Assembly (NCBI GenBank): GCA_002372175.1
Contig: DFIS01000080.1
Span: 1 to 39,664 of the forward strand
DNA from: Solobacterium sp. UBA3691
GTDB lineage: Bacteria > Bacillota_I > Bacilli_A > Erysipelotrichales > Erysipelotrichaceae
Reading direction: 5' to 3'
Length of the DNA stretch: 39,664 bases
Positions 1 through 20,245 of the stretch are shown here, piece after piece. Made by a program: the position numbers and the translations under genes. The notes beneath the pieces were generated by a model that saw only the letters and a list, made by a program, of their open reading frames with translations, searched no databases and was not told the DNA's origin. Numbering within the stretch: position 1 is the first letter of the stretch; every line of letters begins with the position of its first letter.

Positions 1-43
1 TGTCTACTTGACAAGGGTCATATCATCCCAAGATTCTGTTTTA

Positions 44-493
44 TCATGTATTCATTTCGGTATTGAATTTCTTCTGCAGCTGTTTCCTGCATACCAGATA
101 TGCCGGTATCGCAAACAGTGCTGTAAAGATCCAGACCAATGCATTGGCACAGCATACCCCGGTAAAGCCAAACGGCCCTGCCAGGATATAACAGGCAAAG
201 GCTCTGCCCAGTACTTCTGTCATTCCGGTCACGAGTGATACCACCGGATATCCCATGCCCTGGATAATACCAGGTATGCACGTTGCAGGACCCAGTACCG
301 CAAAGCCGATCACAAGATTCATGAAAAACGCTGTGGCACCGAACCCCGCAAGCTGATTCAGGCCGAGATATCGGCCGACGATCATCGTATCCGCGATGTT
401 GTACATCTGCTGGAAAAGAATGCCAAGCCAAACCGGGAAGGCAAACCTGAGCAGATGCGTTAACGGTGAACCCGATGTCATATTATTGATCAT
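44..493 (-). pseudogene. Internally deleted MATE-family transporter remnant (149 aa; N-terminal ~60 aa joined in frame to C-terminal ~85 aa)
   Basis: The ORF aligns by eye to both ends of the adjacent 455-aa MATE protein. N-terminal match: SGSPLTHLLRFAFPVWLGILFQQMYNIADTMIVGRYLGLNQLAG vs VGSPLRHILSFAIPVLLGNLFQQLYNVADTLIVGRFLGLNQLAG. C-terminal match: IIQGMGYPVVSLVTGMTEVLGR vs ILQGMGFSIASLITGITEVVGR. About 300 central residues are missing. It starts 15 nt after the full-length gene's stop. Confidence 0.6.
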
Positions 494-508
494 ACGGGAA
501 CTCCGGTA

Positions 509-1876: not shown

Positions 1877-1903
1877 ACTGCACCTCCCGATGATACCGGA
1901 ATT

Positions 1904-1948
1904 AAAAACCGAATTGCTCTTGGTTATATACTAACGCAGAGAATTCGG
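1904..1948 (-). terminator. Possible rho-independent terminator downstream of the esterase gene
   Basis: The arms ccgaattgctc (1909-1919) and gagaattcgg (1939-1948) can pair with one bulge. On the minus strand they are followed by TTTTTAATT. The loop is long, so the call is weak. Confidence 0.3.
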
Positions 1949-1987
1949 CTGTATCTATCGCAAAAACTGCATTGTATGCGATGTTTC

Positions 1988-2584
1988 TTATAATACCAGT
2001 GTCTTTAATGCTTTATGCATACGCATATCAGGATCCTGGAAATGCCCTCCCGGATTCAGTTCATACGTTACCGTACAGTACTGTCCCAGAAGATCCCGGA
2101 CCTGTTCTGTCTTTTCTTCCACCGCAGACATGACCGGGTTCTTCGTCTTCTTCTCTTTCTCGCCGACGGAAAGGTATACCCGCTCACAAAGTACCGGATG
2201 CGTCTGTAAATACGCTGTAAAATCAGGAAACCACAGTGATCCCGATACCGAAGCAGCACCCGTAAAGCCCCGGATCTTTGTGACGGCATACAGCGAGAAA
2301 AGACCGGCCAGGGAATATCCCATCAGATACGCATGATCATACGTCTCTCCCGCAAGCACGGAAGCCACTGCCTGTACCATCTCATCCGCCTGTCCGCCGA
2401 AGTCTTCACCCTGTCTGAATATCTTCTGTGCCGGCCACGGTGACATATACATGTTCCAGTCATAGTCATAAATATTGACTGCCCGGATACCCTGCAGATC
2501 ACCCAGGATCTTTGCGGGATCCTCCTCCCGCATCATGATCACGAGATCTTTTCCTTCCCCGTATCTGCTTACCTTGTACTCCAT
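1988..2584 (-). CDS. Alpha/beta-hydrolase, putative esterase family protein
   Basis: 198-aa ORF with the nucleophile elbow G-Y-S-L-A-G (GxSxG) and a GGAGGA RBS upstream of the ATG. Confidence 0.65.
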   Translation of the reverse strand: MEYKVSRYGEGKDLVIMMREEDPAKILGDLQGIRAVNIYDYDWNMYMSPWPAQKIFRQGEDFGGQADEMVQAVASVLAGETYDHAYLMGYSLAGLFSLYAVTKIRGFTGAASVSGSLWFPDFTAYLQTHPVLCERVYLSVGEKEKKTKNPVMSAVEEKTEQVRDLLGQYCTVTYELNPGGHFQDPDMRMHKALKTLVL

Positions 2585-2650
2585 TGTCTTCCTCCGTTTT
2601 TACAAATCCCTTCATATCCGCTATGATTAATTTCAGCGGAGGTGATGTAT

Positions 2651-3352
2651 ATGACTTCTCAGAAAAAGAGATTCCCGCTGATCCGTTTCCTGGTCAGTCT
2701 GTGTCTCATAGTATGTGCCTGCCTGATGTGGGTACTGTATCATACGACATTGTTCGTCAGTAACCGTACAGCTCCCGAAGGCTATCTCGATATCAGTTCC
2801 TACAAACTGTATGACGAAAGCGGTAAGGCAGACAACGATCCCCTGCGCTCGATCGACGGCAGCTCCTACACCTGGTATACCGACATGAATACGCTTAAGA
2901 CGGCGGAAGGTATCGGTCCCGGCAGCTCCTGGGAAGAGTTCCTGCAGGCCTACGGCTCATACAAAGTCAAGTATATCGATATATACAGCGAAAACGCTGA
3001 CTACGAGAGTGATGAATACTATGCGACCCATCACCTCAAAGATATTACGCCCGAAGAATTCGACAGACGCTTTCTGCAGACCGGTATTATCGACCCCGAA
3101 AACGAGGACATCGATATCACCTTCGGTGTCTATGCCCGCGGTACGGAACTGCTGTATACACAGTCAGAGATCGATACTGCCCTTGATAAGTACTATGACA
3201 CGTTCTTCATGGTCGGTCCCTGGCGTTTCTCCCTGAGTCCCCAGTATCATACGGTCACGATGGACTTTGAGTTCCGTCCCATGAAAGAAATATACGGACA
3301 TGAGGACGAAGCAGGCTCCGTCCTCTATTCCGTCAGTATTTACAAGTACTGA
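2651..3352 (+). CDS. Hypothetical membrane-anchored protein (single N-terminal TM helix, acidic/Tyr-rich extracytoplasmic part)
   Basis: The ORF track starts at a GTG at 2642. The ATG at 2651 sits 8 nt after GGAGG and is the better start. The N-terminal hydrophobic helix is LIRFLVSLCLIVCACLMWVLY. I recognised no family. Confidence 0.55.
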   Translation: MTSQKKRFPLIRFLVSLCLIVCACLMWVLYHTTLFVSNRTAPEGYLDISSYKLYDESGKADNDPLRSIDGSSYTWYTDMNTLKTAEGIGPGSSWEEFLQAYGSYKVKYIDIYSENADYESDEYYATHHLKDITPEEFDRRFLQTGIIDPENEDIDITFGVYARGTELLYTQSEIDTALDKYYDTFFMVGPWRFSLSPQYHTVTMDFEFRPMKEIYGHEDEAGSVLYSVSIYKY

Positions 3353-6220
3353 TCACCTGACGATCTCAAGACCATCTACGGTATTCAGTTTACCCTCGGC
3401 TGCCACTACACATACGGCAGCCTTTTTCATGCCCTCTTCGAGCCAGTCCGCCAGCTGTACAAAGTCCTCCGGCGTCGTATGCAGAAGCTCTTCACGCAGC
3501 TTTTTGCGGTATTCATACGTAATACCGCTGATCTGACGCAGATCTTCAAGACGTATTCTGGACTGCGGAGACTGCAGCGGATCACCGGCTGCTACAGCAC
3601 CGATGATATACGCGTCCAGCGGGGTATCGCCCCTGGCCAGCTCACGTGTGAATTCACCCAGTGTCTTTGTGATATGGATCGTATTCGCCGGATCGGGATC
3701 ACGGAAAGAGTATGCGGTAAGCGTACCGTCAGCTCCCACGGAAAGTCCGGTACCGTAGGCACCGCCCTTGACTCTGACTTCATTCCAGAGATAGCCATAC
3801 GTCAGGATATGACTCAATGCCCTGATCGCTCCGGAGATCCTGCCGCCGACATCCTTCAGGTTGAACGAAGCTGCACTGTAGGCAATACCTGCAGGAATGA
3901 CCATGCCCTCCTGCTTTCTATCTTCGATCGGGAAGTGTACAACACCTCTCTCGAATCTCTGTGTCTGGTACTTATCCGAAAGATCGGTCAGAGCTTTCAG
4001 ATTCTCTTCACCGGTCATGCTCAGGATCATGCGCTCCCTGTTGAACAGGATATCCCTGTACATCTCCAGATTGGCGATGAATTCCTCAGCTCTTTCATCA
4101 TAGTGTTCATACAGATCACTGACCCAGCAGATCGAGGCATAGCCATCGAGGTCTTCCCTGGCACTGCCGCCGGCACTGCACTGTGACGCTGTTCTGATCA
4201 TCGCCGCAAGATGACCGCTGCTGATCATCGCCTGTCTGTTGGCTTCGACCTCCTGTGCCAGAAGAGCCCTGATCATCTCCTTGTCGAAGATCGTCTTCTG
4301 GGTGATCTCCCATACCAGATCCATCGCCGTCTGCAGGTTCTTCTTCAGTACCTTGCCGGTCGCATACAGCAGCGGAATCGCCGCATCACGGTCTTCAGGC
4401 AGGGAACTGACCGTTGTCCCGAAAGCCAGTCCGCCAAGGTCTCTGCGGATGATCTGGCGCAGTTCTGTCAGGGTATGATCTTCGGTCGGAAGACTGCCGA
4501 GCAGATCCGCGAACTCACCGACTTCCGCCAGTGACTTCTTCGTAATACCGTTCATCAGGAAGTACATGCTGAAGTAGACGATACCTGTCTTCTCCTCCGG
4601 ATACAGCATGACCGGTATGCCCCTGTATTCACGCTTCTCCGGTTCATAACGCATCGGTTCTGCCGGTACATCACTGATCTTCAGCTGCGGCAATGTCGCC
4701 AGCTGTTCCGGTGTATCCGGTGTCTCCTGCCATTCATCCAGGACCCTGTTGATCTCCACGAAGGCATTAACATCTTCCCAGCTCTCTTTCGCCTTCTGCA
4801 GACGTGCTGCCTCTTCCGCTTCTCTTTCTTCACCGAGCGTCTTTGACGGTATGGCTGTCAGAATATTGACATCTTCTGCCAGAAGTCCCTCTCTGATCAG
4901 TTCTTCAAAGTATCCCTGATTCAGCTTCTCCCGCAGCTCATCGTAGTAATGTCCGGCATCGAGATACATCGTCGGATCACCATCATACAGCCAGCTTCTG
5001 AGCATCATCTCGGCATAGATGACACCGCTGGGTTCCTTGGGCTCATGGTAGCGGAACTCCATCCCGTTAAGGACTGCCTTTACCTCTTCCCTGTCGATAC
5101 CCTTTGTCACAATATCCGTCAGTACTTCTCTGACCGTCTTTAATACTTCGTCCTTCTTCTCAGGATCGGTATTTCTGACTGACAGTGTAATATACGGCTG
5201 GATCATCTCATCCATCAGGGCGATCTCCACATCCTGCCCAAGACCGCTGTCAATAATAGCCTTCTTTAACTGTGTCTCATTACTTCCGGTCAGTACACCC
5301 GAGATCACATTCCAGGCGATCTGTTTCTCCGGCTCCGTGTAGTCACCGACGATCTTGGCCAGTGTTACTACAGTCTTGGCACTTTCATCCTCATCCGGGG
5401 CGATCTCATAGATTACCGTACGGTCTTCAGCAGGCAGGATCTTCTGCATATCGATATGTACATGCATATCCCTGGCTTCATATTCCTGCAGTACTTCATC
5501 GATCCTTGTCAGTACGGTATCGATATCAAGATCTCCGTCCAGGAAGAAGTACGCATTGGAAGGATGATAGAATCTTCTGTGATCGGCAATAAACTGCTCA
5601 TAGGAAAGATCAGGAATATGCCTGGGATCACCTCCCGATACATACTGATAGCAGGTATCCCTGAACATCATTCTCTGCAGTTCATCGATAATGATCTCAT
5701 CCACGGAAGAGAAAGCACCCTTCATCTCGTTAAAGACAACACCCTTGTATATCGGTTCCTCTTCAGGATCTCTGATCTCATAGTGCCATCCCTCCTGATA
5801 GAAGATATTCGGATTTGTATAGATCGCCGGGTGGAATACCGCATCCAGGTAGACATCCATCAGGTTCAGGAAGTCCTGAGGATTCCTGCTGGATACCGGA
5901 TACATCGTCTTATCGTTGAAGGTCATCGCATTCAGAAACGTCTGCATACTCCCCTTTAACAATTCCACAAACGGTTCTCTCACAGGGTACTTCTTCGAGC
6001 CGTTTAAGACACTGTGTTCAAGAATATGAAAGACACCCGTATCATCCTCGGGTACGGTCTTAAACGCCACCGAGAACGTCTTATTCTCTTCATCACGCTT
6101 TAACCAGGCAAGCTTTGCGCCGGAGTGAGGATGTTCCATCACGATCAGCTCTGCCTGTATGTCATTAACCTTACGGATCTCCTTAACCGTAAAACCATGT
6201 ATGATCTCATTTATCTGCAT
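3353..6220 (-). CDS. M16C insulinase-family zinc metallopeptidase (PreP-like)
   Basis: 955-aa ORF with the inverted zinc motif HxxEH present as H-I-L-E-H (GVFHILEHSVLNGS) near the N-terminus. Length and layout are typical of M16C peptidases. Confidence 0.85.
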   Translation of the reverse strand: MQINEIIHGFTVKEIRKVNDIQAELIVMEHPHSGAKLAWLKRDEENKTFSVAFKTVPEDDTGVFHILEHSVLNGSKKYPVREPFVELLKGSMQTFLNAMTFNDKTMYPVSSRNPQDFLNLMDVYLDAVFHPAIYTNPNIFYQEGWHYEIRDPEEEPIYKGVVFNEMKGAFSSVDEIIIDELQRMMFRDTCYQYVSGGDPRHIPDLSYEQFIADHRRFYHPSNAYFFLDGDLDIDTVLTRIDEVLQEYEARDMHVHIDMQKILPAEDRTVIYEIAPDEDESAKTVVTLAKIVGDYTEPEKQIAWNVISGVLTGSNETQLKKAIIDSGLGQDVEIALMDEMIQPYITLSVRNTDPEKKDEVLKTVREVLTDIVTKGIDREEVKAVLNGMEFRYHEPKEPSGVIYAEMMLRSWLYDGDPTMYLDAGHYYDELREKLNQGYFEELIREGLLAEDVNILTAIPSKTLGEEREAEEAARLQKAKESWEDVNAFVEINRVLDEWQETPDTPEQLATLPQLKISDVPAEPMRYEPEKREYRGIPVMLYPEEKTGIVYFSMYFLMNGITKKSLAEVGEFADLLGSLPTEDHTLTELRQIIRRDLGGLAFGTTVSSLPEDRDAAIPLLYATGKVLKKNLQTAMDLVWEITQKTIFDKEMIRALLAQEVEANRQAMISSGHLAAMIRTASQCSAGGSAREDLDGYASICWVSDLYEHYDERAEEFIANLEMYRDILFNRERMILSMTGEENLKALTDLSDKYQTQRFERGVVHFPIEDRKQEGMVIPAGIAYSAASFNLKDVGGRISGAIRALSHILTYGYLWNEVRVKGGAYGTGLSVGADGTLTAYSFRDPDPANTIHITKTLGEFTRELARGDTPLDAYIIGAVAAGDPLQSPQSRIRLEDLRQISGITYEYRKKLREELLHTTPEDFVQLADWLEEGMKKAAVCVVAAEGKLNTVDGLEIVR

Positions 6221-6290
6221 AGTATTCCTGCCATTTCTAAGCCCATGGGCAATCTATGGATATTGTACCAACGGATAAGAGAAAGAGGCA

Positions 6291-6325
6291 ATAAAACAAA
6301 ATACTCCTGTTGGACAAGAGTATTT
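6291..6325 (-). terminator. Weak candidate terminator between the island and the M16 peptidase gene
   Basis: On the minus strand, AAATACTC (pairs with 6318-6325), an 11-nt loop and GAGTATTT are followed by TGTTTTATT. The stem is AT-rich, so stability is low. Confidence 0.3.
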
Positions 6326-6553
6326 CTTTGCTGTCTCTCCCTGTTACTGCGGGACAGATATCGATTTACAGGACAATCAGCCACGGGGATGGGATGCATC
6401 ACATGACAAGTAACACAAACTTCTTCAATGCGTATTTCAGCAGAGAGTATCCCGCTAGATGTATGAAGAATTATCAAAAGATGATCAACTTCCGTACCGA
6501 TGCTCTAAGACATCATATTTCTTATTTAGAAACTGTAGAATTATAATTGCTGA

Positions 6554-9184
6554 TCAATTGATTTTCACCCACATAGCTGGACGGATCATGTACTCGTATT
6601 TTTGTTTAACAATCGGAGAATATCCATCAACGTATATACCATACAAGCCAATGCCTCCATCATGTACTCCAAAAGCAGCAGTATAAGGTTCTTGACCGGG
6701 CGAGCGCAGCCACCAATTAGAACCATTAGTGACATCGTTGACATAAACACCTTTCCCGAGTGTATATGGTGTTGCTTTTGCCAATCTTTCAGCATCAGAA
6801 TTAAAATACTGCTGAGCTTCCTGTATTGATAACAGGAATATCTTATCCTGTGTATCTTTTCCCGGATCTGTATTGTACTCCGGATTCTTGTCTGCTGTCA
6901 CAGTGCTTGTTTCAATGAGTGATTGTTCTTCACCGGTAAATGCTGATGAAATAAAATAACTATTCAACCATTTTCGAAGTGAACAAGTTTGCCATGTACC
7001 ATTCTCCCTTGATGTATCATATGGCTGACTGTCCAATCCGTATTCACTGATCAAAAGGATCCTGTTATCTTCTTTTGCTAAAACTTTCCATGTAATAGCT
7101 TCTTTGCCATTAGAAGTACTCGCATCCTGTTCATATGAACCAAATGTTACTATTTCTCCGGGCTTGGCAACCATAACTGTAACATACGGATTTTCTTCTC
7201 TAATAGATGCTGCCAGTTCAGCGCTGTCTTTATATCCATTCAAACCCATCAATATCTCATATGCGCCGGCATAATCTCCATTTTCTCGCATAGCAATTGC
7301 GGATTTATACTTATTGCTTGGAATTACCGTTGTTCTTATGATCACAAAAGCAACCACACAAAGAACCAAAACAGCAGTAACTATGCCAATTATGCTCTTT
7401 TTCTTTTTACGGGAGATTTCTTCCTGTTTTCTCTGAATCGCATACTGTCGCTCTATTTCTTTGCGATTCTCTTCTGTTAATCTGTCTATCTCCTTCTGGC
7501 AATACTCTGAATAACCGCCGCTTTCCTGATAACCCTTAAGCGAATCAAATACTGTTTTTGCTTTTTCAAAAGACGTTATATCTGTTGCGGCATTCATCGC
7601 AGTAATAGCTTGTGTATAGTCCAGATTTCTCCTTTGCTCTGCCTGCTCAGCCAATGCCTGCACTTCTTTATCTGCTTGTATAAGGAAAGCAGCATAATTA
7701 CTCTTCACCTTAGAAATACTGTTCTCATCTGTCTTTTTAGCAAGGGTGATACGCTCGTCCAAAATACGGTTTAATTCTGAGAGTTCATTTTCCAGCTTCT
7801 TCTTTGTTTCACCTTTAGCGTATTGTAATGCTCTGGTCAGATTACGTTCTGATTCCAATTCTTTTTGCAGCTTTGATTTTTGAATTCTTCTGCTTTGAAG
7901 ATAAGAGTCAAATCCAAGATCATATTGATATTGTCTCAGAATAGCTTCTCTGTCCAGGTATCCGTCAATACTGTATTTCTGTACTGCTGCATTAATATGA
8001 TCATTATCTTCCTGTCCTGCTTTTACTCGCTGGATGCCGGCATGTTTATACTCTTCTTTGTAATGATTAAACAAAGCTTCAAGATTTGGCTGACGGTTTT
8101 TCAGCAGAAGTTTTCCAAGATATGCTTCTGCAGATTCAGGCTCCTGATTCAGTGCTTCTTCAAAGAAACTATCGGCTTTATCCCATTCCTTGTCCTCAAG
8201 AGCTATCATGCCTCTTTTGACAAATGCCGAGGCACCACCTGAAGAATTGTTCTGAGTAACCGCCTTCTGAACAAACGGGGCTGCAGTCTCCTTTATAACC
8301 ACCTTTTTGATTCCACGAACCACATCATTGATAAATCCAATCTTACTCATGTCCTGTGCCTGGAGATGTGAGAATTCTTCAGGCAGGTCATATGCATCCA
8401 TATCTCTGTAGCAAGGAATCAGCAGCTTGGTACGGTCTTTTTTCATCAATTTCAGGAAACGTGACCATTCGTTCTTTACCCATACTGCATTGAAATACTC
8501 CGGTCTAGTGCCAATCACCAGCATTACTTTTGCTGTATTCAGTGCTGAGAAAATATACGGTTCATATTCTTTTCCCAGTTTATCTTCCAAAGTAATAGCC
8601 GCAAAGAATACTTTAAATCCTTCACGTGTCAGTTGGTAATAGATTTCATTGGCAATCACACTATCCTGTGTTCGTTTCCCAGATTCATCCGTCTCCTTAT
8701 AGCAGATGAAAACATCATATGGATCTTCTTTCTGTGCAAGGGCAAGGATTCCGCGCTGGATCTCATCGATCTCTTTAGCCTGAGCTTCATAGATTCCTCT
8801 TTGGGCAGTATCTGCGTAATATAATGCGTTCTTATAATCTTCATCCGCAGTGACTGATTCATATGACGCACGATGGCATGTCGGAACTCTCTTATACGTC
8901 ACCGGATCTTCAACATACTCAATACCGTACTTACAGAGGATAAGCCCCCAGTATGCTTCAGCTTCTGTTTCACTCCTCTGAAGGATCTTTTCATAGATCT
9001 CTGCTGCTTTATCAAACTCAGAGCGCATACGAAGCGTATTTGCTCTGTTGAAAAGCGTCTGCAAACCTTCATCATGAACAGAAGGAATTGTTTGTCTGGT
9101 ACCGCAGAACTCACATTCACATACCCTGCTTCCCTCTATAACGGTTAAATCACCGCCGCACATCTTACATTTCCATACCACCAT
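6554..9184 (-). CDS. Transmembrane TIR-domain protein: N-terminal Zn-ribbon, TPR-like region, TIR domain, TPR, long coiled coil, one TM helix, C-terminal DUF6273-like domain
   Basis: I moved the start to the ATG at 9184 (AAGGAG RBS 8 nt upstream); the track ORF starts at 9214. Zn-ribbon: CKMCGG...CECEFCG. TIR-like block: YDVFICYKETDESGK...AVWVKNEWSRFL, nt ~8315-8719, with the candidate catalytic Glu codon at 8468-8470. TM helix: KKKK-SIIGIVTAVLVLCVVAFVII-R, nt 7337-7396. The C-terminal domain has the SNWWLRSPG and RPAMWV motifs typical of DUF6273. Confidence 0.8.
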   Translation of the reverse strand: MVVWKCKMCGGDLTVIEGSRVCECEFCGTRQTIPSVHDEGLQTLFNRANTLRMRSEFDKAAEIYEKILQRSETEAEAYWGLILCKYGIEYVEDPVTYKRVPTCHRASYESVTADEDYKNALYYADTAQRGIYEAQAKEIDEIQRGILALAQKEDPYDVFICYKETDESGKRTQDSVIANEIYYQLTREGFKVFFAAITLEDKLGKEYEPYIFSALNTAKVMLVIGTRPEYFNAVWVKNEWSRFLKLMKKDRTKLLIPCYRDMDAYDLPEEFSHLQAQDMSKIGFINDVVRGIKKVVIKETAAPFVQKAVTQNNSSGGASAFVKRGMIALEDKEWDKADSFFEEALNQEPESAEAYLGKLLLKNRQPNLEALFNHYKEEYKHAGIQRVKAGQEDNDHINAAVQKYSIDGYLDREAILRQYQYDLGFDSYLQSRRIQKSKLQKELESERNLTRALQYAKGETKKKLENELSELNRILDERITLAKKTDENSISKVKSNYAAFLIQADKEVQALAEQAEQRRNLDYTQAITAMNAATDITSFEKAKTVFDSLKGYQESGGYSEYCQKEIDRLTEENRKEIERQYAIQRKQEEISRKKKKSIIGIVTAVLVLCVVAFVIIRTTVIPSNKYKSAIAMRENGDYAGAYEILMGLNGYKDSAELAASIREENPYVTVMVAKPGEIVTFGSYEQDASTSNGKEAITWKVLAKEDNRILLISEYGLDSQPYDTSRENGTWQTCSLRKWLNSYFISSAFTGEEQSLIETSTVTADKNPEYNTDPGKDTQDKIFLLSIQEAQQYFNSDAERLAKATPYTLGKGVYVNDVTNGSNWWLRSPGQEPYTAAFGVHDGGIGLYGIYVDGYSPIVKQKYEYMIRPAMWVKIN

Positions 9185-9265
9185 ACTTAAGTCTCCTTCG
9201 TAGTTTTCTGGCAAAAGCTATTCCTATTACATTTTTGGTTTATGATTCACCTATTTGTTATATTT

Positions 9266-10207
9266 CTATCCTTCAAAAATATCGGTCAAATGCTCATCCA
9301 AAAAGTTTTCTAGAGCAGCATTTACCAATCTCAGACACTTCAAATCCAAATCATTTTTAAACGCTATCAGCTGTATCGGTCTATTTGCATGAAACAGTGT
9401 GCACCGAAGGTAATATGACAGTTCACCGACGATAAATCCCTCTACGGTGATATCCTTTTTGACATGCTTTTCTATATAATGACTGATGATCTTATATGTT
9501 TTGGTTTCACTGTCCCGAATATCCTTCAGGAAGGTGTTTTCGCTGACTTCCTGCAGTGCCAAAAGCGGAGATTTTCCTAAGCTTTCTCGTTCTCTCTGTA
9601 TCAGCATTTCATTTCCAAGATGATATCGCCTTAAAATTCTCTCTATATTGGGTTTATCCTTATGTTTTTCAGCATCACGTCTGGATGAATAAAAACCATT
9701 AAATGCCATCCAAAGATTCTGAAACCGTTCTGTTTCATATGCTCTGCTTTTGCTGTACAAATATGCAGATAAAGCCGCGCTCTCACTTCCCTTTTCGGTT
9801 TTTGTTGCCGACATCGCTTTTTGAAGGAATTGAGTTTCCTTAACGTATTCCGGCAGGGGTCTCAACAATTTGGAATTGATCATCGAGTAAGGCATAAAGC
9901 TTGTATCGATAATCTCCTTACATTCATTCCCATCAATCACAGTTAATTCAAAGCATTGATTCTTGATAGGTGCTTCATATAGAAAAAGATGCAGGATCAT
10001 TGCACGCCTGATTCCTTCTCTCATGAGATTGATAAGATACTGATTATTTGTTTTTCTATAATCTTTACCAATCAAAGCACTGATCGTGTACTTATCCTTT
10101 GCTATCCGAACACTAATGTGATGGGTTCGCTGAAAAGAGAATTCAAACTTTTTAGCTCTTCTCAATTCATCATTACAGTTTACCTTTAACAAGTATTTCA
10201 GTTTCAT
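9266..10207 (-). CDS. Hypothetical protein with a C-terminal HEPN-like Rx4H motif (candidate RNase effector)
   Basis: 313-aa AT-rich ORF. The C-terminal helical half contains YYL-R-CTLF-H-ANRP (R268/H273, nt 9389-9406), which fits the HEPN Rx4-6H signature. An upstream helix ERFQNLWMAFNGFY resembles the first HEPN helix. The N-terminal ~130 aa are unrecognised. The functional call is tentative. Confidence 0.4.
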   Translation of the reverse strand: MKLKYLLKVNCNDELRRAKKFEFSFQRTHHISVRIAKDKYTISALIGKDYRKTNNQYLINLMREGIRRAMILHLFLYEAPIKNQCFELTVIDGNECKEIIDTSFMPYSMINSKLLRPLPEYVKETQFLQKAMSATKTEKGSESAALSAYLYSKSRAYETERFQNLWMAFNGFYSSRRDAEKHKDKPNIERILRRYHLGNEMLIQRERESLGKSPLLALQEVSENTFLKDIRDSETKTYKIISHYIEKHVKKDITVEGFIVGELSYYLRCTLFHANRPIQLIAFKNDLDLKCLRLVNAALENFLDEHLTDIFEG

Positions 10208-10277
10208 TCTTTTTCCTATTAACGTGACAGCCCTGAGGAACAGGGTGTTTTCACGTCTCTTATTGATCTGTTTTCAT

Positions 10278-10967
10278 TTACTTGTTTCGTGCACAAAGCA
10301 CATTTCTTTCTTTCAGCTGTGCAGTAATCTTTAAACAGCTTTTCTCTGCTTCTGAACTATTCTTTTCCGTCAGATATTTCTTCAATTTTTCCATCTCGTT
10401 CAGAAGATCATATTCATGCTGGATCGTCGCATCAGACGATACCGGATCACTATATTTAAACTCTTCTGTAAGATCCTGAAGTTTTTTCTTTAATGACCCA
10501 TCCTCACAAATACTAACTAATGCTGAACAGGCTGCCTGTAATGAACGCATGTTCGTAGTATCTTTCTTTATCTTTACTTCCTGTCGTTCTACTTCTTCTC
10601 TTGCTGCATCTGCTGCTACAGTACCTATAACAGCCAATGCTGCGGGCAGTATGTTGATCACGACAGCGATCCATGTCTTTATATATGGCGCAGCAATCAT
10701 CCCAATCAGACTGATCACCAACTGGGCAATCATATACATGACTCCTACACGTGCAATAGGAAAACCATAGAATTTACTTTTTGTTTCTGCTCCGTCAGCA
10801 AACGATATTTTCAGAACATACACCTGGAATACGATGGCAATTACACCAAACAGATATGAAATCCAGAAAACAGCATTTTTATTAAATGGAGCCGCAAACG
10901 CTATAACACTGAAGACGGCAAATATTACAGAAAGGATGATATACCGACGAAGTTCGTTTTTAGACAT
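10278..10967 (-). CDS. Hypothetical 4-TM membrane protein with a ~100-aa cytoplasmic helical tail
   Basis: 229-aa ORF with four clear hydrophobic helices followed by a charged helical C-terminus (…LQDLTEEFKYSDPVSS…). Its start lies 3 nt after the SPFH gene stop, which suggests tight coupling. Confidence 0.6.
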   Translation of the reverse strand: MSKNELRRYIILSVIFAVFSVIAFAAPFNKNAVFWISYLFGVIAIVFQVYVLKISFADGAETKSKFYGFPIARVGVMYMIAQLVISLIGMIAAPYIKTWIAVVINILPAALAVIGTVAADAAREEVERQEVKIKKDTTNMRSLQAACSALVSICEDGSLKKKLQDLTEEFKYSDPVSSDATIQHEYDLLNEMEKLKKYLTEKNSSEAEKSCLKITAQLKERNVLCARNK

Positions 10968-10969
10968 GT

Positions 10970-12820
10970 CTATTCACCTCTTCTCTTTCCGCATATATTG
11001 CAGAAGTTACCGATTATATTCTTGTTACCGCACGAGCAATCCCATGTTGCAGGAACCGACGGTTCCGGTCTCCTGGCTCCGCACATATTACAGAAATTGC
11101 CAATGATATTCTTATTGCCGCATGCACAGTCCCATGTATCCGGTTTAACAGGCTGCGGTCTTCTGGTTCCGCACATATTGCAGAAGTTACCGACGATATT
11201 CTTATTACCGCATGTACAGTCCCATGTATCTGCAACCGGCTGTGTACTTGTTGCAGGATTCGGTACTGCACCTGTCTGTGTCATGTTCATATTTTGGAAC
11301 ATACCGCCAATCTGCGGTGCAACTGCATTCATTGCAGCAAGTCCTACACCAAGACCAAGCATGTCACCCATAACATTGGAGCCCCCGCCTGCAGAGATTG
11401 CCGGTCCCATATTCCCGATTCCTTCAGCATATGCTTTCTGCACTTCAGCCTGCAGTACGTCCCTTTGAGAATATCCCTTGGCAGCCATAACCTCTGCTTC
11501 TGTTAAACCTGCCATTCTCTGTGCCTGCGCTTCCGCCTGGGCAGCAATGACTCTTCTTTCAGCTTCACGTCTGGCGATCTCCGTTTCAGTCGTCTGTCTC
11601 TGCAGTTCAGCTTCACGGCGTGCTGCTTCGATCGTCGCTCTGCTTTGTTCCTGCGCGGTTCTGTACTGAGTCTCTGCCTGTGCCTGTACAGTCTTTATCG
11701 TTGCATCTGCCTGCACAACTCTTGCCTGAAGGGTAATTGTATGCAGTTCTCTTATCCGTTTGAAATTCGGATCATTTTCCGGAAGCACCACACTTGTTAC
11801 ATATAACTGAGGGATGGTTAAACCATATTCTTCAAATCCCGGAAGAATCTTCTGTCTGAGATTTTCAGATATAAGATCCAGCTTCTCATCAATCTCCAAA
11901 AGATCAATATTCTCATTTTTAATTACTGAAGACAGATTGGTTTTTACAGCATTTGCGATTAATGGCCGGAAGGATGCCTGAAGTGATTTTGTCATACCTT
12001 CCCCACCGTCCCATGAAACTCCTTTTGTTGTTCCTACAAGCTTTACAAGCAGTTTCCTGGCATTAGATACCTGTAGATTCATTTCACCGGATGCTCCGAT
12101 CTCCAACGGTGTACCGGTCAATGGATCAATGAAGCGTACTTTTTCCGGTGTCCCCCACTTAATAGCCATCTGAACAGTCTTATTAATAAAATACACTTCA
12201 GAGTGGAAAGTCCTGTCTGTATCTGTAGGCAGCTGATAAATAGAATCCAAAATCGGAAGTTTCTGAGTTTCAAGTGTGTATCTGCCCGGTCCAAACAGAT
12301 CTAACGCCTGGCCATCTCTGAAAAAAACCGCTTCCTGACTTTCGTGCACGATCAACTGAGATCCCATATTGAAATCTTCTATAGGATGCTTCCAGATAAA
12401 AGTATTATTATCTCCTTCATATTTGATGATGCTTGCCAGACCGTCTTTTCTCATCTTTTCAGCCATCAGGCGTTCCGGAACATTATTCACAAAGTCACAA
12501 ACTGGACATGTATAGGAAGATGCCGCCTTGCTGGTGATCAGTTTCACACCACATTGGGCGCAGGAAAATTCTGCCATTTTATCTTGGCCTTCCATCGTAT
12601 TGATTGGTTCTCCGCAGACAGGACACTTCGCCTTTGCTCCTTTTGACTGATCAAAAACAACATCATTGCTGCAGTGAGGGCATTTTCTGCTTATAAGTTT
12701 ATCCATACGAACATTAATCGTGTAACCGCAGGAACAATCAATTTTCTTTCTTGCAAAGAACCCACTGCTTGCTTCTACATATTTGCCGCAGTTCGGACAC
12801 TCCATTACGAATTTAGACAT
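10970..12820 (-). CDS. SPFH/Band-7 family protein (YdjI / COG4260-like) with three N-terminal Zn-ribbons and three C-terminal RanBP2-like Zn fingers
   Basis: 616-aa ORF. N-terminal CxxC pairs: CPNCG...CSCG, CPHCS...CPVCG, CAQCG...CPVCD. The central region (IIKYEGDNNTFIWKHP...SQLIVHESQEAVFFRDGQ...) is typical of YdjI-type SPFH proteins and is followed by an A/Q/E-rich coiled coil. The C-terminus has 3x TWDC.CGNKNI.GNFCN.CG.RR. A GAGGGAG RBS precedes the start. Confidence 0.8.
   Translation of the reverse strand: MSKFVMECPNCGKYVEASSGFFARKKIDCSCGYTINVRMDKLISRKCPHCSNDVVFDQSKGAKAKCPVCGEPINTMEGQDKMAEFSCAQCGVKLITSKAASSYTCPVCDFVNNVPERLMAEKMRKDGLASIIKYEGDNNTFIWKHPIEDFNMGSQLIVHESQEAVFFRDGQALDLFGPGRYTLETQKLPILDSIYQLPTDTDRTFHSEVYFINKTVQMAIKWGTPEKVRFIDPLTGTPLEIGASGEMNLQVSNARKLLVKLVGTTKGVSWDGGEGMTKSLQASFRPLIANAVKTNLSSVIKNENIDLLEIDEKLDLISENLRQKILPGFEEYGLTIPQLYVTSVVLPENDPNFKRIRELHTITLQARVVQADATIKTVQAQAETQYRTAQEQSRATIEAARREAELQRQTTETEIARREAERRVIAAQAEAQAQRMAGLTEAEVMAAKGYSQRDVLQAEVQKAYAEGIGNMGPAISAGGGSNVMGDMLGLGVGLAAMNAVAPQIGGMFQNMNMTQTGAVPNPATSTQPVADTWDCTCGNKNIVGNFCNMCGTRRPQPVKPDTWDCACGNKNIIGNFCNMCGARRPEPSVPATWDCSCGNKNIIGNFCNICGKRRGE
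10973..11227 (-). repeat. Three tandem ~90-bp coding repeats (one Zn finger each)
   Basis: Repeat units lie at about 11138-11227, 11048-11137 and 10973-11047 (the last is truncated by the stop). The periodicity also shows in the antisense ORF 10998..11468 (LQKLP.IFLLPH.QSHV x3). Confidence 0.85.
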
Positions 12821-13014
12821 TATAATTCTCCCTCTTCAGTGCTTTTACTTATCTCCTGAATCACTTCATTAAAAACAGTCAGACTGTTCTTCTTGTTAAT
12901 TGGTATATCAAGAATTTTTGCGTCATGATCCATATTCATTTCTGCTGATAGCCTACAAATATATACCGATATTATTTTGCCGATTTTTTGCGATCTACCA
13001 CGATATATGAACAT
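12820..13014 (-). CDS. Possible small ORF (39-64 aa) translationally coupled to the SPFH gene
   Basis: Its stop TAA overlaps the SPFH ATG (TAATG). I recognised no family and the start is uncertain (an internal MNMDHDAK... start is possible). It could be spurious. Confidence 0.25.
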   Translation of the reverse strand: MFIYRGRSQKIGKIISVYICRLSAEMNMDHDAKILDIPINKKNSLTVFNEVIQEISKSTEEGEL

Positions 13015-13152
13015 TGATCTTTTGACTTTGTTATTACAGCAAGTTCGCTCTGTCCTGCCTTACTTCCGTAAATCTCAAATACATTGCTATGTGATTATGG
13101 GATCGACGCTTTGCAACATTTCCCGGGCTTCGCTGGATTTCTGATTTTAGGA

Positions 13153-15738
13153 TTAGTCGATTTTCACCCATAAAGCGGGGCGGACCGTGTTACTGTCATC
13201 ATCCACGGAGTCGCCGATCACATCGACAAGAACAGAGATCTTAGCAGCAAACCCGGAATCGCTGCCGGGCGACCGCAGCCACCAGGAACACATTCCTTTG
13301 TCATTTGTATAAGCTCCATTCTTTTTTGCGTATGGCGTTGCTTTAGCACTTCTATTTTCATCGGATTTGAAATATTTGTTTACTTCAGGCACAGATAAGA
13401 GAAATATCTTATCCTGTGTATTCTTACCAGGGTCTGCAGGATACTCAGGATTCTTATCCGCAGTTACTTTTGTCGTAAGAATCCGTGCTTTTTCCTGTCC
13501 ATTAAACACAGTATTATAGAACTCTTTATTCAACCATTTTCTTATCGAACATTTTTCCCATGTTATACTTTCGTATTCTTCGTTGTATGGCTTCGCATCA
13601 ATTCCATCTTCTGTAATCAGCAGTGCTCTGTCTTTTTTAACTTCAAGTATTCGCCATTTAATTGGTTTCTTCTGAGAATCATATTGATAAGTGCCAAACC
13701 CTTGACTTATTATTTGAGCTTTATTAATTAACGGGTTTATTGCATTTATAATCATTGCCTTTGCAGAGACAGTATTATTTTGATGTATGATTACTGCTTT
13801 CTTTTCCGGCTTTGGCTTTTGTACGGGTTTATCTGCTGGCTTGGTCACTGGTTTCGTTTCAATGAGTGTTTTTTTCAAAGCCGCAATATTATCCTCCAAC
13901 TCTTTTCTCTTTTTGCCGGAGAACAAACCTTTCAAATTCTTTTTTTCAGATTCTAATTTCTTTATTTTCTCTTCCAATTCACCTTTTTTCTTCTCTGCGG
14001 TTATACATGATTCTTCATAATCAATTTTGGATTGTTCCCATTTCTTTACAGCTAGATTATTATCGTTTTCCCATTGACTAATATCTCTCTGGTAAGAATC
14101 TTCAGCGTCTTTTTCCGCTTTCTTTCTTGCTGTTTCTTCCTCTATTTTTATTTTGGAAATCTGATCAGCATTTTTTTCTAAACGATCAGAAATATCTCTT
14201 TTAAACAATTCTGACTGTTCAGCCAATAATTTTTCTGCATTTTTTCTCTTTTCTAATTCTTTTGACATTTCAGATTTAAGAAGATCCCTGAGTTTGTCGA
14301 TCACTTTGTTTATTTCTTTTTCAACATTTCCATCTTTGTATCTGCATGCGCGTTTGTAATCGCGGTTGTTAAGAAGTTTCCCAAGACCTTCAACTGATAA
14401 ATTTCTGAATGCCTCCCTATAGCACACAGGATCCTCTAGTGTAAATGTTATTTTTTCAGGATGTAAGCCAATCAGCAATTTATCCAGTTCCTGATCAGAG
14501 AATTCATCGAGGAAGTGCCGAGAATCTGCTTCCCTTGCATATGCATGCGCCTCAAATGGAAGCGTCTGAACCCATAAATGTTCTTGCGCGTGCTTTTTAA
14601 TCTGGTCAAATAATTTTTTTGCCAATTCTGCTGAGCAATTCGAATTATACACGCACAGTACTTTCCCCCAGTAAGCAGCGCCACATTCTGCATCATTGTT
14701 AAGAACCTGCTCATAAAACTCATTAGCTCTTGTAAAATCACCATCTTCAATTGCCATATTGCCACGTTTCAATAGTGACTGTGTCTGCGCGTTCAAAACT
14801 GACAGCCCGCTGTCAGTATTTTTTTCTTCTTTTTCCTTATTATCTTTTCTCAGAATTTTATCGATCCCTCTCAAAAGATCCTGCATTGCACCTACTTTTC
14901 CCATATCTTGTGCCTGCAGTCTTGCAAATTCCTTCGGCATATCATATGCATCCAGATTTTTATATACCGGGATCATTGTTTTCTTTTCTCCTGAAGCTAT
15001 AAGATGAAGATATCTACTCCATTCGTTCTTTACCCATACCGCATCAAAATATTCAAATTTTGTTCCAACGGCCAGCATCAGTTTGGCGGAATGAAGTGCC
15101 GCAAAGATATATGGTTCATATTCCGTGCCGAGTTTATCTTCTAACGTAATTCTGGAGAAGAATACCCGATATCCCTTTTCAGTTAAAGCATTATAAATAT
15201 CCTGTGCCAGAACACTGTCCAGTGTCCTTTCTCCGTTTTCATCGGTTTCTTTGTAGCAAATAAAGATATCATACGGCTGTTCATTGGAAGATACTTCTAT
15301 TATGCCTTTTCTCAGATCTTCAATTTTCTTAGCCTCGTCACGATATACACGCTTTGCAACTGCATCAGCATATTCCATGACCATCTCATAATTATTGTCA
15401 TCAAAAATACTTTCAAACGAGGATCTGTGGCAGGTAGGCACTTTCTTTCCGGTTAGCGGATCATCAACATACTCTATTCCATACTTGCAAAGAACCAGTC
15501 CCCAGTATGCTTCTGCTTCTTCCTGAAATTCAGAAATGATAGCTTCATATACACCGGCAGCTTTGTCGAATTCATTATTAAAACGAAGTCTGTTTGCCCG
15601 TGTAAACAAATTCATCTTTTTTTCATTATCCGCATTTGGAATTGTCTGCAAAGTTCCGCAGAATTCACATTCACATACTGTACTGCCTTCTATCGGTGTA
15701 AGATCTCCACCGCACATTTTACATTTCAGAGCCACCAT
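13153..15738 (-). CDS. Soluble TIR-domain protein, paralogue of 6554..9184: Zn-ribbon, TPR-like region, TIR, TPR, long K/E-rich coiled coil, P/K linker, DUF6273-like C-terminal domain; no TM helix
   Basis: 861-aa ORF with a GGAGGG RBS. The first ~290 aa are collinear and gap-free with the other TIR protein (about 60% identity by eye). TIR block: YDIFICYKETDENGE...AVWVKNEWSRYL, nt ~14869-15273, Glu codon at 15022-15024. The C-terminus has the CSWWLRSPG and RPALWV motifs. Confidence 0.8.
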   Translation of the reverse strand: MVALKCKMCGGDLTPIEGSTVCECEFCGTLQTIPNADNEKKMNLFTRANRLRFNNEFDKAAGVYEAIISEFQEEAEAYWGLVLCKYGIEYVDDPLTGKKVPTCHRSSFESIFDDNNYEMVMEYADAVAKRVYRDEAKKIEDLRKGIIEVSSNEQPYDIFICYKETDENGERTLDSVLAQDIYNALTEKGYRVFFSRITLEDKLGTEYEPYIFAALHSAKLMLAVGTKFEYFDAVWVKNEWSRYLHLIASGEKKTMIPVYKNLDAYDMPKEFARLQAQDMGKVGAMQDLLRGIDKILRKDNKEKEEKNTDSGLSVLNAQTQSLLKRGNMAIEDGDFTRANEFYEQVLNNDAECGAAYWGKVLCVYNSNCSAELAKKLFDQIKKHAQEHLWVQTLPFEAHAYAREADSRHFLDEFSDQELDKLLIGLHPEKITFTLEDPVCYREAFRNLSVEGLGKLLNNRDYKRACRYKDGNVEKEINKVIDKLRDLLKSEMSKELEKRKNAEKLLAEQSELFKRDISDRLEKNADQISKIKIEEETARKKAEKDAEDSYQRDISQWENDNNLAVKKWEQSKIDYEESCITAEKKKGELEEKIKKLESEKKNLKGLFSGKKRKELEDNIAALKKTLIETKPVTKPADKPVQKPKPEKKAVIIHQNNTVSAKAMIINAINPLINKAQIISQGFGTYQYDSQKKPIKWRILEVKKDRALLITEDGIDAKPYNEEYESITWEKCSIRKWLNKEFYNTVFNGQEKARILTTKVTADKNPEYPADPGKNTQDKIFLLSVPEVNKYFKSDENRSAKATPYAKKNGAYTNDKGMCSWWLRSPGSDSGFAAKISVLVDVIGDSVDDDSNTVRPALWVKID

Positions 15739-15905
15739 GATGATCCCTCCATTTCCCCTTATAATTGATTAAGATTATCTATTTATCGCAATTCGCTCAA
15801 TCTGGACTAAAACGTGTACTTTTTTGCTTGGTAATATGTCTAAATCAAATTTTAACATATACCGCTCTTTATGCGCATAACAATAAGGTACTTAGAAGCT
15901 AATAC

Positions 15906-16597
<692 letters not shown>

Positions 16598-16627
16598 TCA
16601 TCCATGTTTTCTGCGCATGCATATATG

Positions 16628-16669
16628 AAAAAGTCACCTGTATGTAACCCTTGATTTGATACAGTTGAC
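16628..16669 (-). terminator. Rho-independent terminator of the citDEF/dehydrogenase operon
   Basis: On the minus strand, GTCAACTGTAT, a 15-nt loop and ATACAGGTGAC (10/11 pairing) are followed by TTTTT, 13 nt after the dehydrogenase stop. Confidence 0.65.
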
Positions 16670-16681
16670 TTTCTTTCTTTA

Positions 16682-17647
16682 TTATTTGTTTACAACGTTT
16701 ACCGGTTCACCCTGCAGGTAACCTTTGATGTTATCTACCGTCATGTCCATGATACGCTGTCTGGCTTCCTTTGCGCCCCAGGACATATGCGGTGTAATGA
16801 TGCAGTTCTTTGCGGTAAGCAGAGGATTATCACCCTTGATCGGCTCGGTGCTGGCGACGTCTACACCGGCTGCGGCGACCTTCCCTCTGTCCAGCGCATC
16901 CGCAAGATCCTGTTCAACGATCAGCGGTCCCCTGGAGTTATTCAGGATGATCACACCGTCCTTCATCTTTGCGATACTGTCCTTGTTGATGATCCCCTGT
17001 GTCTCCGGGAATAACGGACAGTGCAGGGCGATCACATCACTCTTTGTGAACAGTTCATCCAGTGTCACATAGTCTGCGATCTGTCTGCCTGCCTCATTCT
17101 CAAAGCTGTCATATGCCAGTACATGCATACCCAGTGCTTTGGCGATCTCACCGGTCCTTCTGCCGATGCGTCCGAAGCCGATGATGCCAAGTGTCTTGCC
17201 GGCCAGTTCGATCAGCGGATAATCCCAGTAACAGAAGTCGGGGCAGTTCTCCCACTTACCTTCCTTGACAGTTCTGTCATGGTGACCGATATGATGACAG
17301 ATCTCCAGCAGTAAGGCAATCGCAAACTGGGCTACGGAATCTGTACCGTATGTCGGTATATTGCATACCGGGATGCCCTTCTCTTTCGCATATGCGGTAT
17401 CGACAATGTTGTATCCGGTTGCCAGCACACTGATCATCCTGATCTGCGGACATGCGTCCAGTACATTCTTCGTGATCGGTGTCTTGTTGGTCAGTACGAC
17501 TTCTGCATCCCCGATGCGGCTGATGATCTCCTCTTCATCATGCAGAGGAGTTCTCTCATAGACTGTCAGTTCACCAAGTGCTTCTACACCTTCCCAGGAG
17601 AGATCTCCGGGATTCTCTGTATATCCGTCCAGTACTACGATCTTCAT
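16682..17647 (-). CDS. D-isomer-specific 2-hydroxyacid dehydrogenase (glycerate dehydrogenase/hydroxypyruvate reductase-like)
   Basis: 321-aa ORF with the NAD-binding motif GIIGFGRIGRRTG and a family-typical C-terminal region (NCIITPHMSWGAKEARQR). Confidence 0.85.
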   Translation of the reverse strand: MKIVVLDGYTENPGDLSWEGVEALGELTVYERTPLHDEEEIISRIGDAEVVLTNKTPITKNVLDACPQIRMISVLATGYNIVDTAYAKEKGIPVCNIPTYGTDSVAQFAIALLLEICHHIGHHDRTVKEGKWENCPDFCYWDYPLIELAGKTLGIIGFGRIGRRTGEIAKALGMHVLAYDSFENEAGRQIADYVTLDELFTKSDVIALHCPLFPETQGIINKDSIAKMKDGVIILNNSRGPLIVEQDLADALDRGKVAAAGVDVASTEPIKGDNPLLTAKNCIITPHMSWGAKEARQRIMDMTVDNIKGYLQGEPVNVVNK

Positions 17648-17650
17648 CTC

Positions 17651-19932: not shown

Positions 19933-19933
19933 G

Positions 19934-20203
19934 TCAGTCCTCCTTCGAAGAACGGACAAGCGCCGTCTTCAGTCTTGCCTTGATCGTACAGTCCAGAGCA
20001 CCGTGGTCAACAGCACTGACCTGTACCGAGTCCACGCCCTCTGCCCGCAGAACATCTTCGATCACGCGAATAATTGCGTCGTGGTAGTACATGTCCACCG
20101 TGGAGTCAAGATCGATCGCTACCTCACCGTTGCCGGGTGCCACCGTGATCATGACATCACTGGATTCCAGTGTACCGCACACTGCAGGATGTTTAATTAT
20201 CAT
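19934..20203 (-). CDS. citD: Citrate lyase acyl carrier protein (gamma subunit)
   Basis: I moved the start to the ATG at 20203 (GGAGGA RBS). The 89-aa protein begins MIIKHPAVCGTLESSDVMITV, which carries the conserved prosthetic-group serine context (LESSD). Confidence 0.8.
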   Translation of the reverse strand: MIIKHPAVCGTLESSDVMITVAPGNGEVAIDLDSTVDMYYHDAIIRVIEDVLRAEGVDSVQVSAVDHGALDCTIKARLKTALVRSSKED

Positions 20204-20217
20204 ACGTATGTCCTCCG

Positions 20218-20245
20218 TTCTGTATACTGTTAAATGTATACATTT
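20218..20245. promoter_or_regulatory. Two TGTATAC-core boxes including a perfect 14-bp palindrome; candidate GntR/FCD operator
   Basis: The boxes are ttctgtatactg (20218-20229) and aaatgtatacattt (20232-20245, a perfect palindrome). They lie in the divergent citD/GntR intergenic region and overlap a TTGACA (20244-20249)-16 nt-TACAAT (20266-20271) plus-strand promoter. Confidence 0.5.

Follow-up and report, generated by a model that had tools for sequence, protein, structure and literature searches.

What does a 313-amino-acid (aa) protein that escapes domain databases do between genes for TIR, SPFH and membrane proteins? The question is raised by the open reading frame (ORF) 9266..10207 on the minus strand of contig DFIS01000080.1 from Solobacterium sp. 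UBA3691, a stretch of 39,664 nucleotides (nt) that we analysed as a whole and call the window. A preliminary description had read the protein as an orphan with the Rx4-6H signature of HEPN ribonucleases (RNases) and as a possible effector of the surrounding TIR cluster. The ORF, its length and the placement of R268-x4-H273 at nt 9406-9389 hold; the orphan status does not. We judge the chances to be about even that the protein belongs to a new HEPN-fold RNase effector family that has been modularly recruited to a new TIR cassette, where it would serve as the effector.

A word-indexed homology search recovered nothing beyond the identical protein and a single relative at 63% identity, and even with a profile of 100 sequences it found three proteins only. 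The orphan status suggested by this search was overturned when a two-sequence profile was run exhaustively with HMMER against 1.84 billion cluster representatives: 325 representatives (50% identity) were detected at E≤1e-3, 238 of them at ≤1e-10. As a lower bound, the family thus comprises at least 325 clusters at 50% identity. Among the 150 matches listed, the relatives are mostly 300–370 aa long and matched end to end, and none of the relatives found by the scan carries a name or a Pfam domain. The 313-aa protein has no match at E≤0.001 in Pfam, NCBIfam or PADLOC and only weak matches in PHROGs (E 0.027 and worse), all to families of unknown function; sequence searches of the PDB returned a natriuretic-peptide receptor and condensin, both spurious. 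When 100 relatives were compared with Pfam and PADLOC, matches to RecG_wedge (4), MauJ (2), ApeA_NTD1 (1) and CARF_HEPN (1) appeared, which we treated as noise since they are scattered and not consistent. The family, which is previously unnamed and missed by Pfam, NCBIfam and PADLOC, occurs widely in assemblies of gut and rumen metagenomes, chiefly in Clostridia-type metagenome-assembled genomes.

The ORF begins with an ATG preceded by a plausible AGGA ribosome-binding site and contains LSYYLRCTLFHANRP, the peptide LSYYL-R-CTLF-H-ANRP on which the HEPN proposal had been built, with R268 encoded by cgg at 9406-9404 and H273 by cat at 9391-9389. Taken as a bare pattern, Rx4H is no better than chance in this protein: it occurs three times (at R68, R177 and R268), and 48% of composition-preserving shuffles contain at least one Rx4H and 86% an Rx4-6H. 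What distinguishes the third occurrence is its conservation. In an alignment of 100 sequences with a mean column identity of 23%, W166, Y265, R268 and H273 are the only invariant positions, and R268 and H273 are also invariant in 27 copies translated from the fetched loci. Because the pair is invariant across such divergent relatives, the question of chance is settled and the Arg/His pair can be regarded as a family signature; its position in the structural model, at a helix end and the start of the next loop, likewise sets it apart. F162, N170, Y173 and C269 are each conserved in ≥90% of the 100 sequences. The preliminary description had also pointed to an earlier helix (ERFQNLWMAFNGFY, residues 160-173) as resembling the first HEPN helix of Apea-like families. 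This helix is indeed the second most conserved element of the family (ERFxxLWMAFNGxY; W166 100%, N170 98%, Y173 96%, F162 91%, E158 82%, E160 80% with a further 10% Asp). No profile likeness of the protein to Apea or any other HEPN family was found. E158 and E160 stand at the start of helix 158-174.

A model of the protein was obtained with AlphaFold2 (AF2) from the 100-sequence alignment (predicted local distance difference test (pLDDT) 95.2, predicted template modelling score (pTM) 0.92), as a two-sequence alignment had given an unusable result (pLDDT 37). The C-terminal half is helical, as had been anticipated (pLDDT 95), and residues ~120-311 of the model contain helices only. The N-terminal domain comprises six strands and one long helix, and its conserved residues are T28, K29, D64, K67, K68, H73, Y77 and S108. 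Its fold matches ribosomal protein L1 domain I and TBP, and it possibly serves RNA or ligand binding, or oligomerisation. TBP-like N-terminal domains are joined to a HEPN toxin domain in the toxins RnlA and LsoA.

For the C-terminal domain we propose a HEPN layout with H1 at residues 140-152, H2 at 158-174, a helical insert at 175-254, H3 at 255-271 and H4 at 287-311. Counted back from the end of helix 255-271 in the model, R268 is the fourth residue; H273 lies in the following loop before the last helix (287-311), and the hairpin 140-152/158-174 is set apart from helix 255-271 by about 80 residues folded into small helices. In HEPN domains the Rx4-6H motif is found where a helix ends and the loop leading to the last helix begins, and an insert occurs between the two helix hairpins (PMC3710099). 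We count the agreement of motif position and insert with this description in favour of a HEPN fold; as far as sequence and model can tell, the Arg/His pair, present in 100 of 100 sequences, is placed as in HEPN enzymes. Neither a model lacking a HEPN-like helical fold nor a poorly conserved Arg/His pair, two outcomes that had been named as speaking against the proposal, was observed. E189-x3-R193 was considered as a HEPN Ex3[KR] motif and rejected, as it is not conserved in the family.

Several results weigh against this assignment. A polar N, D or H after the conserved Arg is typical of HEPN domains, if not obligatory (PMC3710099), and in the family R268 is followed by Cys in 97% of the sequences and by Asn in 3%. 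A profile likeness to a HEPN family was not found: the protein has no Pfam match, no HEPN family is among the 25 families listed for 100 relatives, and comparing the family by hhalign with 27 aligned PF05168 sequences gave a probability of 0.1%; the seed of that alignment was a HEPN gene lying near a family gene in locus L016. Foldseek returned nothing below E 0.4 against either PDB or BFVD, and a PDB profile search with the family yielded a spurious condensin match only. In the phage-contig and plasmid collections searched, no family member was present. As the similarity and the residue after the Arg do not follow known HEPN families, we file the protein under a probable new HEPN family rather than under a named one; its C-terminal domain is probably a divergent HEPN-fold helical bundle.

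The proposed tie to TIR genes was examined in 43 loci, about 28 of them distinct, whose neighbouring genes were identified by phmmer with the window's proteins and by Pfam. In 9 of the ~28 distinct loci, about one third, the family gene lies in or next to a TIR gene set (table). Each of these has one family gene and between one and six TIR genes, together with one SPFH gene and one gene for a protein with four transmembrane (4-TM) helices wherever the contig extends far enough; the contig of L037 is too short to show the latter two. Homologues of the 4-TM gene adjoin the family gene in L001, L006, L011, L012, L023, L033 and L040, and SPFH homologues are missing from no TIR-linked locus whose contig reaches far enough; they occur in L039 as well. 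The 63%-identical relative follows the tail of an SPFH gene and a gene for a 233-aa membrane protein and precedes a Zn-ribbon-TPR start, which is the order of the window. Elsewhere gene order is shuffled while gene content stays constant, and spacing is often 0–16 nt, for example in L040, where family gene and TIR gene share a base (0 nt), and in L011, where family gene and SPFH gene lie 2 nt apart. In the window, 51 nt separate the end of the 313-aa ORF from the listed TTG start of the next TIR gene and 81 nt separate it from the ATG at 9184, the start used by the gene calls in metagenomic copies of the island; we adopted this ATG, and the resulting length of 876 aa is that called in L002-L004. 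All 14 TIR paralogs examined share a near-identical Zn-ribbon-TPR-TIR module of ~370 aa with WVKNEW at residue 234-235, whose Glu we take to be the catalytic one from what is known of TIR NADases, and 10 of the 14 continue with a single transmembrane (TM) helix and a variable C-terminal domain. On a neighbour-joining tree of the family, TIR-linked copies are interspersed with unlinked ones.

Some further features of these loci were recorded. The C-terminal domains of the TIR proteins are interchangeable (DUF6273 C-lectin-like, BspA-type LRR_5, RCC1-like or ECF-transporter-like, with a coiled coil after the TIR domain), and TIR-TM-LRR amounts to the parts list of a Toll-like receptor in reversed order. 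In five independent loci a small serine recombinase gene lies on the same strand just upstream of the family-bearing island, and in the window and L040 it precedes the whole TIR cassette. The recombinase may be a mobilising or inverting enzyme of the islands, around which no flanking repeats were identified.

In roughly two thirds of the loci no TIR or SPFH gene is close by, and TIR genes are missing from the available DNA, up to 8–10 kb to each side on longer contigs. The link to TIR genes put forward in the preliminary description recurs in nine divergent loci and does not extend to most of the copies examined. The settings of the other copies include a type I restriction-modification (R-M) operon, the Wadjet genes JetBCD, a Tn7-like element, serine recombinases and a SMEK_N/DUF2326 gene set, the last of which we take to be an ABC-three-component conflict system; these are classic toxin or defence contexts. 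Neighbours in TIR-less loci are often LRR_5, DUF6273 or FGE-sulfatase/C-lectin-fold proteins, like the C-termini of the TIR proteins, and several have signal-peptide-like N-termini. This resemblance could reflect function or the abundance of such genes in these genomes. The conserved residues of the N-terminal domain do not differ between TIR-linked and TIR-less copies, and comparing the two groups revealed no TIR-specific signature, which argues against an N-terminal domain specialised for a nucleotide made by TIR proteins.

How could such a protein work? The analysis itself establishes that the protein belongs to the family, which residues never vary, the likeness in fold and the recurrence of the cassette. 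From sequence and model we infer RNase activity, toxicity, a trigger and a defence role in the following form. The 313-aa protein would be a cytoplasmic two-domain protein in which R268 and H273, aided by Y265 and the helix bearing W166, N170 and Y173, most likely form a metal-independent RNase site of the kind established for other HEPN enzymes (PMC3710099). Dimerisation would probably complete this site as in those enzymes, and the conserved N-terminal domain would be a module for regulation or substrate binding by which the nuclease is held inactive until a trigger arrives. The protein would be a portable toxic effector of conflict systems, and the TIR paralogs with their diverse C-terminal binding domains would be sensors, a role favoured by the single family gene per many TIR paralogs, which resembles Thoeris. 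Upon activation of the cassette, the effector would cleave RNA and halt translation. Candidate routes of activation are a TIR product, loss of NAD+, protein contact, or membrane stress relayed via the SPFH and 4-TM proteins.

The alternative that survives best is an autonomous single-gene HEPN abortive-infection toxin of the ApeA, HepS or RAZR type, which would sense infection by its own N-terminal domain and merely be co-resident with the TIR cassette. Most copies are solitary and reside in neighbourhoods such as an R-M operon, Wadjet, a transfer-messenger-RNA-proximal (smpB) site with a toxin-antitoxin-like pair, or metabolic operons, the N-terminal domain is conserved uniformly whatever the context, and single-protein HEPN defences with sensor domains are documented (PMC13434031). 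We still consider this reading somewhat unlikely, given that nine divergent lineages have the TIR gene set and seven of them SPFH and 4-TM genes as well, that overlapping or near-touching stop and start codons with shuffled gene order are typical of functional linkage, and that the gene lies between cassette genes and not at their edge.

A second alternative accepts the RNase effector but specifies its trigger in the manner of Thoeris: the TIR paralogs would make an NAD-derived nucleotide that is bound by the N-terminal domain and switches on the HEPN RNase. In Thoeris loci a single ThsA is accompanied by several ThsB genes. The one HEPN-like gene beside one to six TIR paralogs per locus, the invariant TIR Glu motif in the paralogs examined and an N-terminal domain with conserved polar and aromatic residues would all be in line with it. 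The preliminary description had likewise suggested that the N-terminal ~130 aa could sense a signal nucleotide. However, the residues shared by linked and unlinked copies, the two thirds of copies that have no TIR gene in the available DNA and the lack of any detected SLOG, Macro, CARF or SAVED domain argue against a domain gated by a TIR-made nucleotide. In addition, L1 domain I and TBP, which this domain resembles, are nucleic-acid binders and not nucleotide sensors, and a signal-responsive effector could just as well be the SPFH or the 4-TM protein. We therefore hold this trigger to be unlikely.

More speculative still is an extension of the effector reading into an outside-in immune pathway in the style of Toll-like receptors. 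Here, arrays of single-pass membrane TIR proteins would sense the cell surface through exchangeable binding domains on its outer side (C-type-lectin-like DUF6273, BspA-type LRR, RCC1-like), SPFH and 4-TM proteins would form a scaffold, and the TIR signal would activate the HEPN RNase via its N-terminal domain; the surface cues would be phage adsorption, contact with a competitor or a host factor. Little probability attaches to this pathway in our estimate. If true, it would add a fifth system of the Thoeris kind, one armed with a HEPN RNase and sensing outside the cell. Equally improbable is that the protein is not a nuclease at all and that its helical domain, a HEPN-like or generic bundle of four helices, binds nucleotide, RNA or protein or forms an immunity or regulatory subunit, with R268 and H273 in a ligand-binding or structural role, since non-catalytic HEPN domains, numerous as such binding modules are, characteristically lose Rx4-6H (PMC3710099), whereas both residues are kept in 100 of 100 sequences here and toxins are typically met in settings such as the R-M operon and the mobile elements, the missing profile match to catalytic HEPN families and the Cys after the Arg being the points on its side.

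Should the prediction of a HEPN-fold effector hold, the HEPN RNase superfamily would gain a family of at least 325 clusters at 50% identity that three databases have missed. Even on the most conservative reading, the protein is a new candidate single-gene abortive-infection toxin with defined mutable residues, R268 and H273. The main interest of the case lies in the receptor-like TIR cassette more than in the HEPN call itself: TIR proteins laid out as membrane receptors with variable ectodomains stand beside SPFH, 4-TM and HEPN partners, which would offer a tractable case for TIR relay of outside signals and for an RNase as executioner of a TIR pathway. The TIR/SPFH/4-TM/HEPN-like cassette is apparently undescribed; in the literature searched, whose coverage was incomplete so that this is absence of evidence only, we found neither a TIR, SPFH and HEPN cassette nor a HEPN-armed Thoeris.

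In the window, the 313-aa ORF belongs to a run of same-strand genes in a low-GC island (~0.37–0.42 versus 0.50–0.53 in the flanks), which spans ~6300-16650 and has an M16 peptidase gene on one side and a 2-hydroxyacid dehydrogenase/citrate lyase operon on the other. The window contains no tRNA, the island ends bear no clear direct repeats, and long repeats exist only between the two paralogous TIR genes. In the direction of transcription the genes are ordered serine recombinase, TIR-DUF6273, small ORF, SPFH, 4-TM, 313-aa protein and second TIR-DUF6273, followed by a hairpin that is likely the operon end. Pfam detects TIR_2 at E ~1e-11 in both TIR proteins of the island; both have the WVKNEW Glu motif at residues 235-240, and the 876-aa one is predicted from its sequence to be a single-pass membrane protein. 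DUF6273 is a C-type-lectin-like binding domain found in phage receptor-binding proteins diversified by diversity-generating retroelements (PMC10743442). Targeting of DUF6273 by such an element was considered and rejected, as inspection by eye of the window's ORFs, of which no Pfam scan was made, revealed none resembling a reverse transcriptase, and as the long repeats are confined to the two TIR genes.

The 616-aa SPFH protein carries several Zn ribbons at its N-terminus and a threefold Zn-finger repeat at its C-terminus. Three 90-nt direct repeats, 68–81% identical, lie at 10979-11243 at the 3' end of its gene and encode three RanBP2-like Zn-finger units (WDC.CG..N...NFC..CG.RR). The 229-aa 4-TM protein has no match at E≤0.001 in Pfam, NCBIfam or PADLOC, with two sub-threshold Pfam matches; in the cassettes its gene invariably comes after that for SPFH, and the ORF at that position in L023 encodes 443 aa and is possibly a fusion. 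The two proteins may form a membrane-acting pair, and the 4-TM protein may be an alternative effector. A 64-aa ORF also precedes the SPFH gene in L006 (4351-4545); it is unrelated in sequence to the small ORF of the window, which may be non-coding, and by eye resembles a ribbon-helix-helix regulator.

Table. Coordinates of features in the window and in the collected loci (L numbers); positions refer to the respective sequence.
Locus	Feature	Position	Strand	Basis or remark
window	193-aa serine recombinase, upstream edge of low-GC island	15986..16567	minus	Pfam Resolvase 5.4e-18
window	861-aa Zn-ribbon-TPR-TIR-coiled-coil-DUF6273 protein, no TM helix	13153..15738	minus	TIR_2 2.9e-11, DUF6273 2.4e-32
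window	small ORF of 64 aa, shortened to 39 aa by some gene calls, coding uncertain	12820..13014	minus	precedes SPFH gene
window	616-aa SPFH (Band_7_1) protein, single-copy cassette partner	10970..12820	minus	PF13421 E 2.5e-37
window	229-aa protein, ~4 TM helices and cytoplasmic helical tail, single-copy partner	10278..10967	minus	hydropathy
window	313-aa two-domain protein, unnamed family	9266..10207	minus	ORF, family search, alignment, AF2 model
window	its N-terminal alpha/beta domain, ~residues 1-118	9854..10207	minus	six strands, one long helix (56-77)
window	its C-terminal all-helical HEPN-like domain, ~residues 136-311	9275..9802	minus	AF2 model
window	its helix E158-T-E-R-F-x-x-L-W-M-A-F-N-G-x-Y173, proposed HEPN helix 2, acidic E158/E160	9689..9736	minus	conservation
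window	its R268-C-T-L-F-H273, predicted catalytic Rx4H motif	9389..9406	minus	sequence, conservation, position in model
window	876-aa Zn-ribbon-TPR-TIR-coiled-coil-TM-DUF6273 protein	6554..9184	minus	Pfam, TM helix residues 594-624
window	terminator-like hairpin, 13-bp stem and T run, after last cassette gene	6298..6326	minus	sequence
window / L002-5	family gene, TIR-linked			100% identity
L001	family gene, TIR-linked			63% identity to query
L006-9	family gene, TIR protein ends in LRR_5	TIR protein 6706-9984 (L006)		23% identity to query
L011	family gene, five full-length TIR paralogs and 75-aa fragment	TIR array 3613-20273		33% identity to query
L012	family gene, four TIR paralogs	TIR array 4313-16625		30% identity to query
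L023	family gene, TIR-linked			24% identity to query
L033	family gene, two TIR paralogs			22% identity to query
L037	family gene, contig ends in Zn ribbon-TPR start of TIR-type gene			identity not measured
L040	resolvase-SPFH-4TM-family-TIR-TIR	TIR array 3925-8724; recombinase 323-964		identity not measured
L013	next to smpB and toxin-antitoxin-like pair			by eye
L015	family gene follows serine recombinase	recombinase 1-510		
L016	secreted LRR_5 protein immediately downstream	11007-13694		
L016	classical PF05168 (UPF0332) HEPN gene	8942-9289	minus	~700 nt upstream of family gene, opposite strand
L018	next to SMEK_N and DUF2326 genes	1-2831		
L019	family gene follows serine recombinase	recombinase 1069-1635		
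L020, L021	FGE-sulfatase-fold proteins	6286-8703 and 9904-10812 (L020)		
L025	TPR-DUF6273 protein	8801-9871		
L029	secreted LRR_5 protein immediately downstream	4310-5446		
L029	family gene follows serine recombinase	recombinase 2344-3027		
L031	secreted LRR_5 protein nearby	3-2363		
L035	278-aa RelA_SpoT small alarmone synthetase directly upstream	7070-7906		
L039	SPFH and TIR-less DUF6273 protein	369-2924		beside Tn7-like element
L041	next to Wadjet JetBCD	1-4517		
L042	among metabolic genes			
L043	type I R-M operon, family gene between hsdS and next ORF	2332-8192		

Among known systems, the HEPN anticodon nucleases PrrC and RloC, which are embedded in R-M operons, resemble the copy of L043, which follows hsdS within a type I R-M operon and has the invariant Rx4H. 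Unlike them, the family has no ABC-ATPase domain and no sequence likeness to them, and most copies are not linked to R-M genes. The parallel to Thoeris (types I-IV, with TIR ThsB sensors and a signal-activated ThsA effector) consists in a variable number of TIR paralogs with single-copy partners, in the retained catalytic Glu motif and in weak NCBIfam and PADLOC matches of the TIR domains to ThcB4 and ThsB. However, these matches are far below the family cut-offs (25.9 bits versus 220), and the known effectors of Thoeris are SIR2-SLOG, Macro-TM or caspase-like proteins, with no HEPN effector in the literature searched. The TIR proteins of the cassette are Zn-ribbon-TPR fusions of 600–1100 aa, most of which have a TM helix and a binding domain predicted to face outward, the cassette has SPFH and 4-TM genes in addition, and co-occurrence of family gene and TIR genes is not obligate. 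An identity with ThsA was rejected, as the 313-aa protein has no recognised signal-binding domain and no match to the ThsA model.

ApeA likewise combines a beta-rich N-terminal part with a HEPN domain at the C-terminus in one chain and is found in R-M operons. As a single-protein HEPN tRNase that a small ligand activates from a separate pocket (bioRxiv 10.64898/2026.01.26.701840), it is a plausible model for gating by the N-terminal domain. In contrast, the N-terminal domain of ApeA is ~300 aa long (PMC3710099) versus ~118 aa in the family, and ApeA has not been reported with TIR or SPFH partners. ApeA_NTD1 matched just one of the 100 relatives (E 0.025), and the 313-aa protein, which has no PADLOC match, was not identified as ApeA in view of the missing model match and the much shorter N-terminal domain. 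From the HEPN superfamily the family differs by the lack of profile likeness to HEPN Pfam families, the Cys after the Arg, an invariant Tyr three residues before the Arg, the W-x3-N-x2-Y helix and a new N-terminal alpha/beta domain. With this superfamily (Anantharaman et al. 2013, PMC3710099) it shares a helical bundle whose two hairpins are parted by a long insert, an invariant Rx4H where the third core helix passes into the loop to the last one, possibly a conserved acidic residue in an upstream helix, and an occurrence in defence, R-M and mobile-element contexts.

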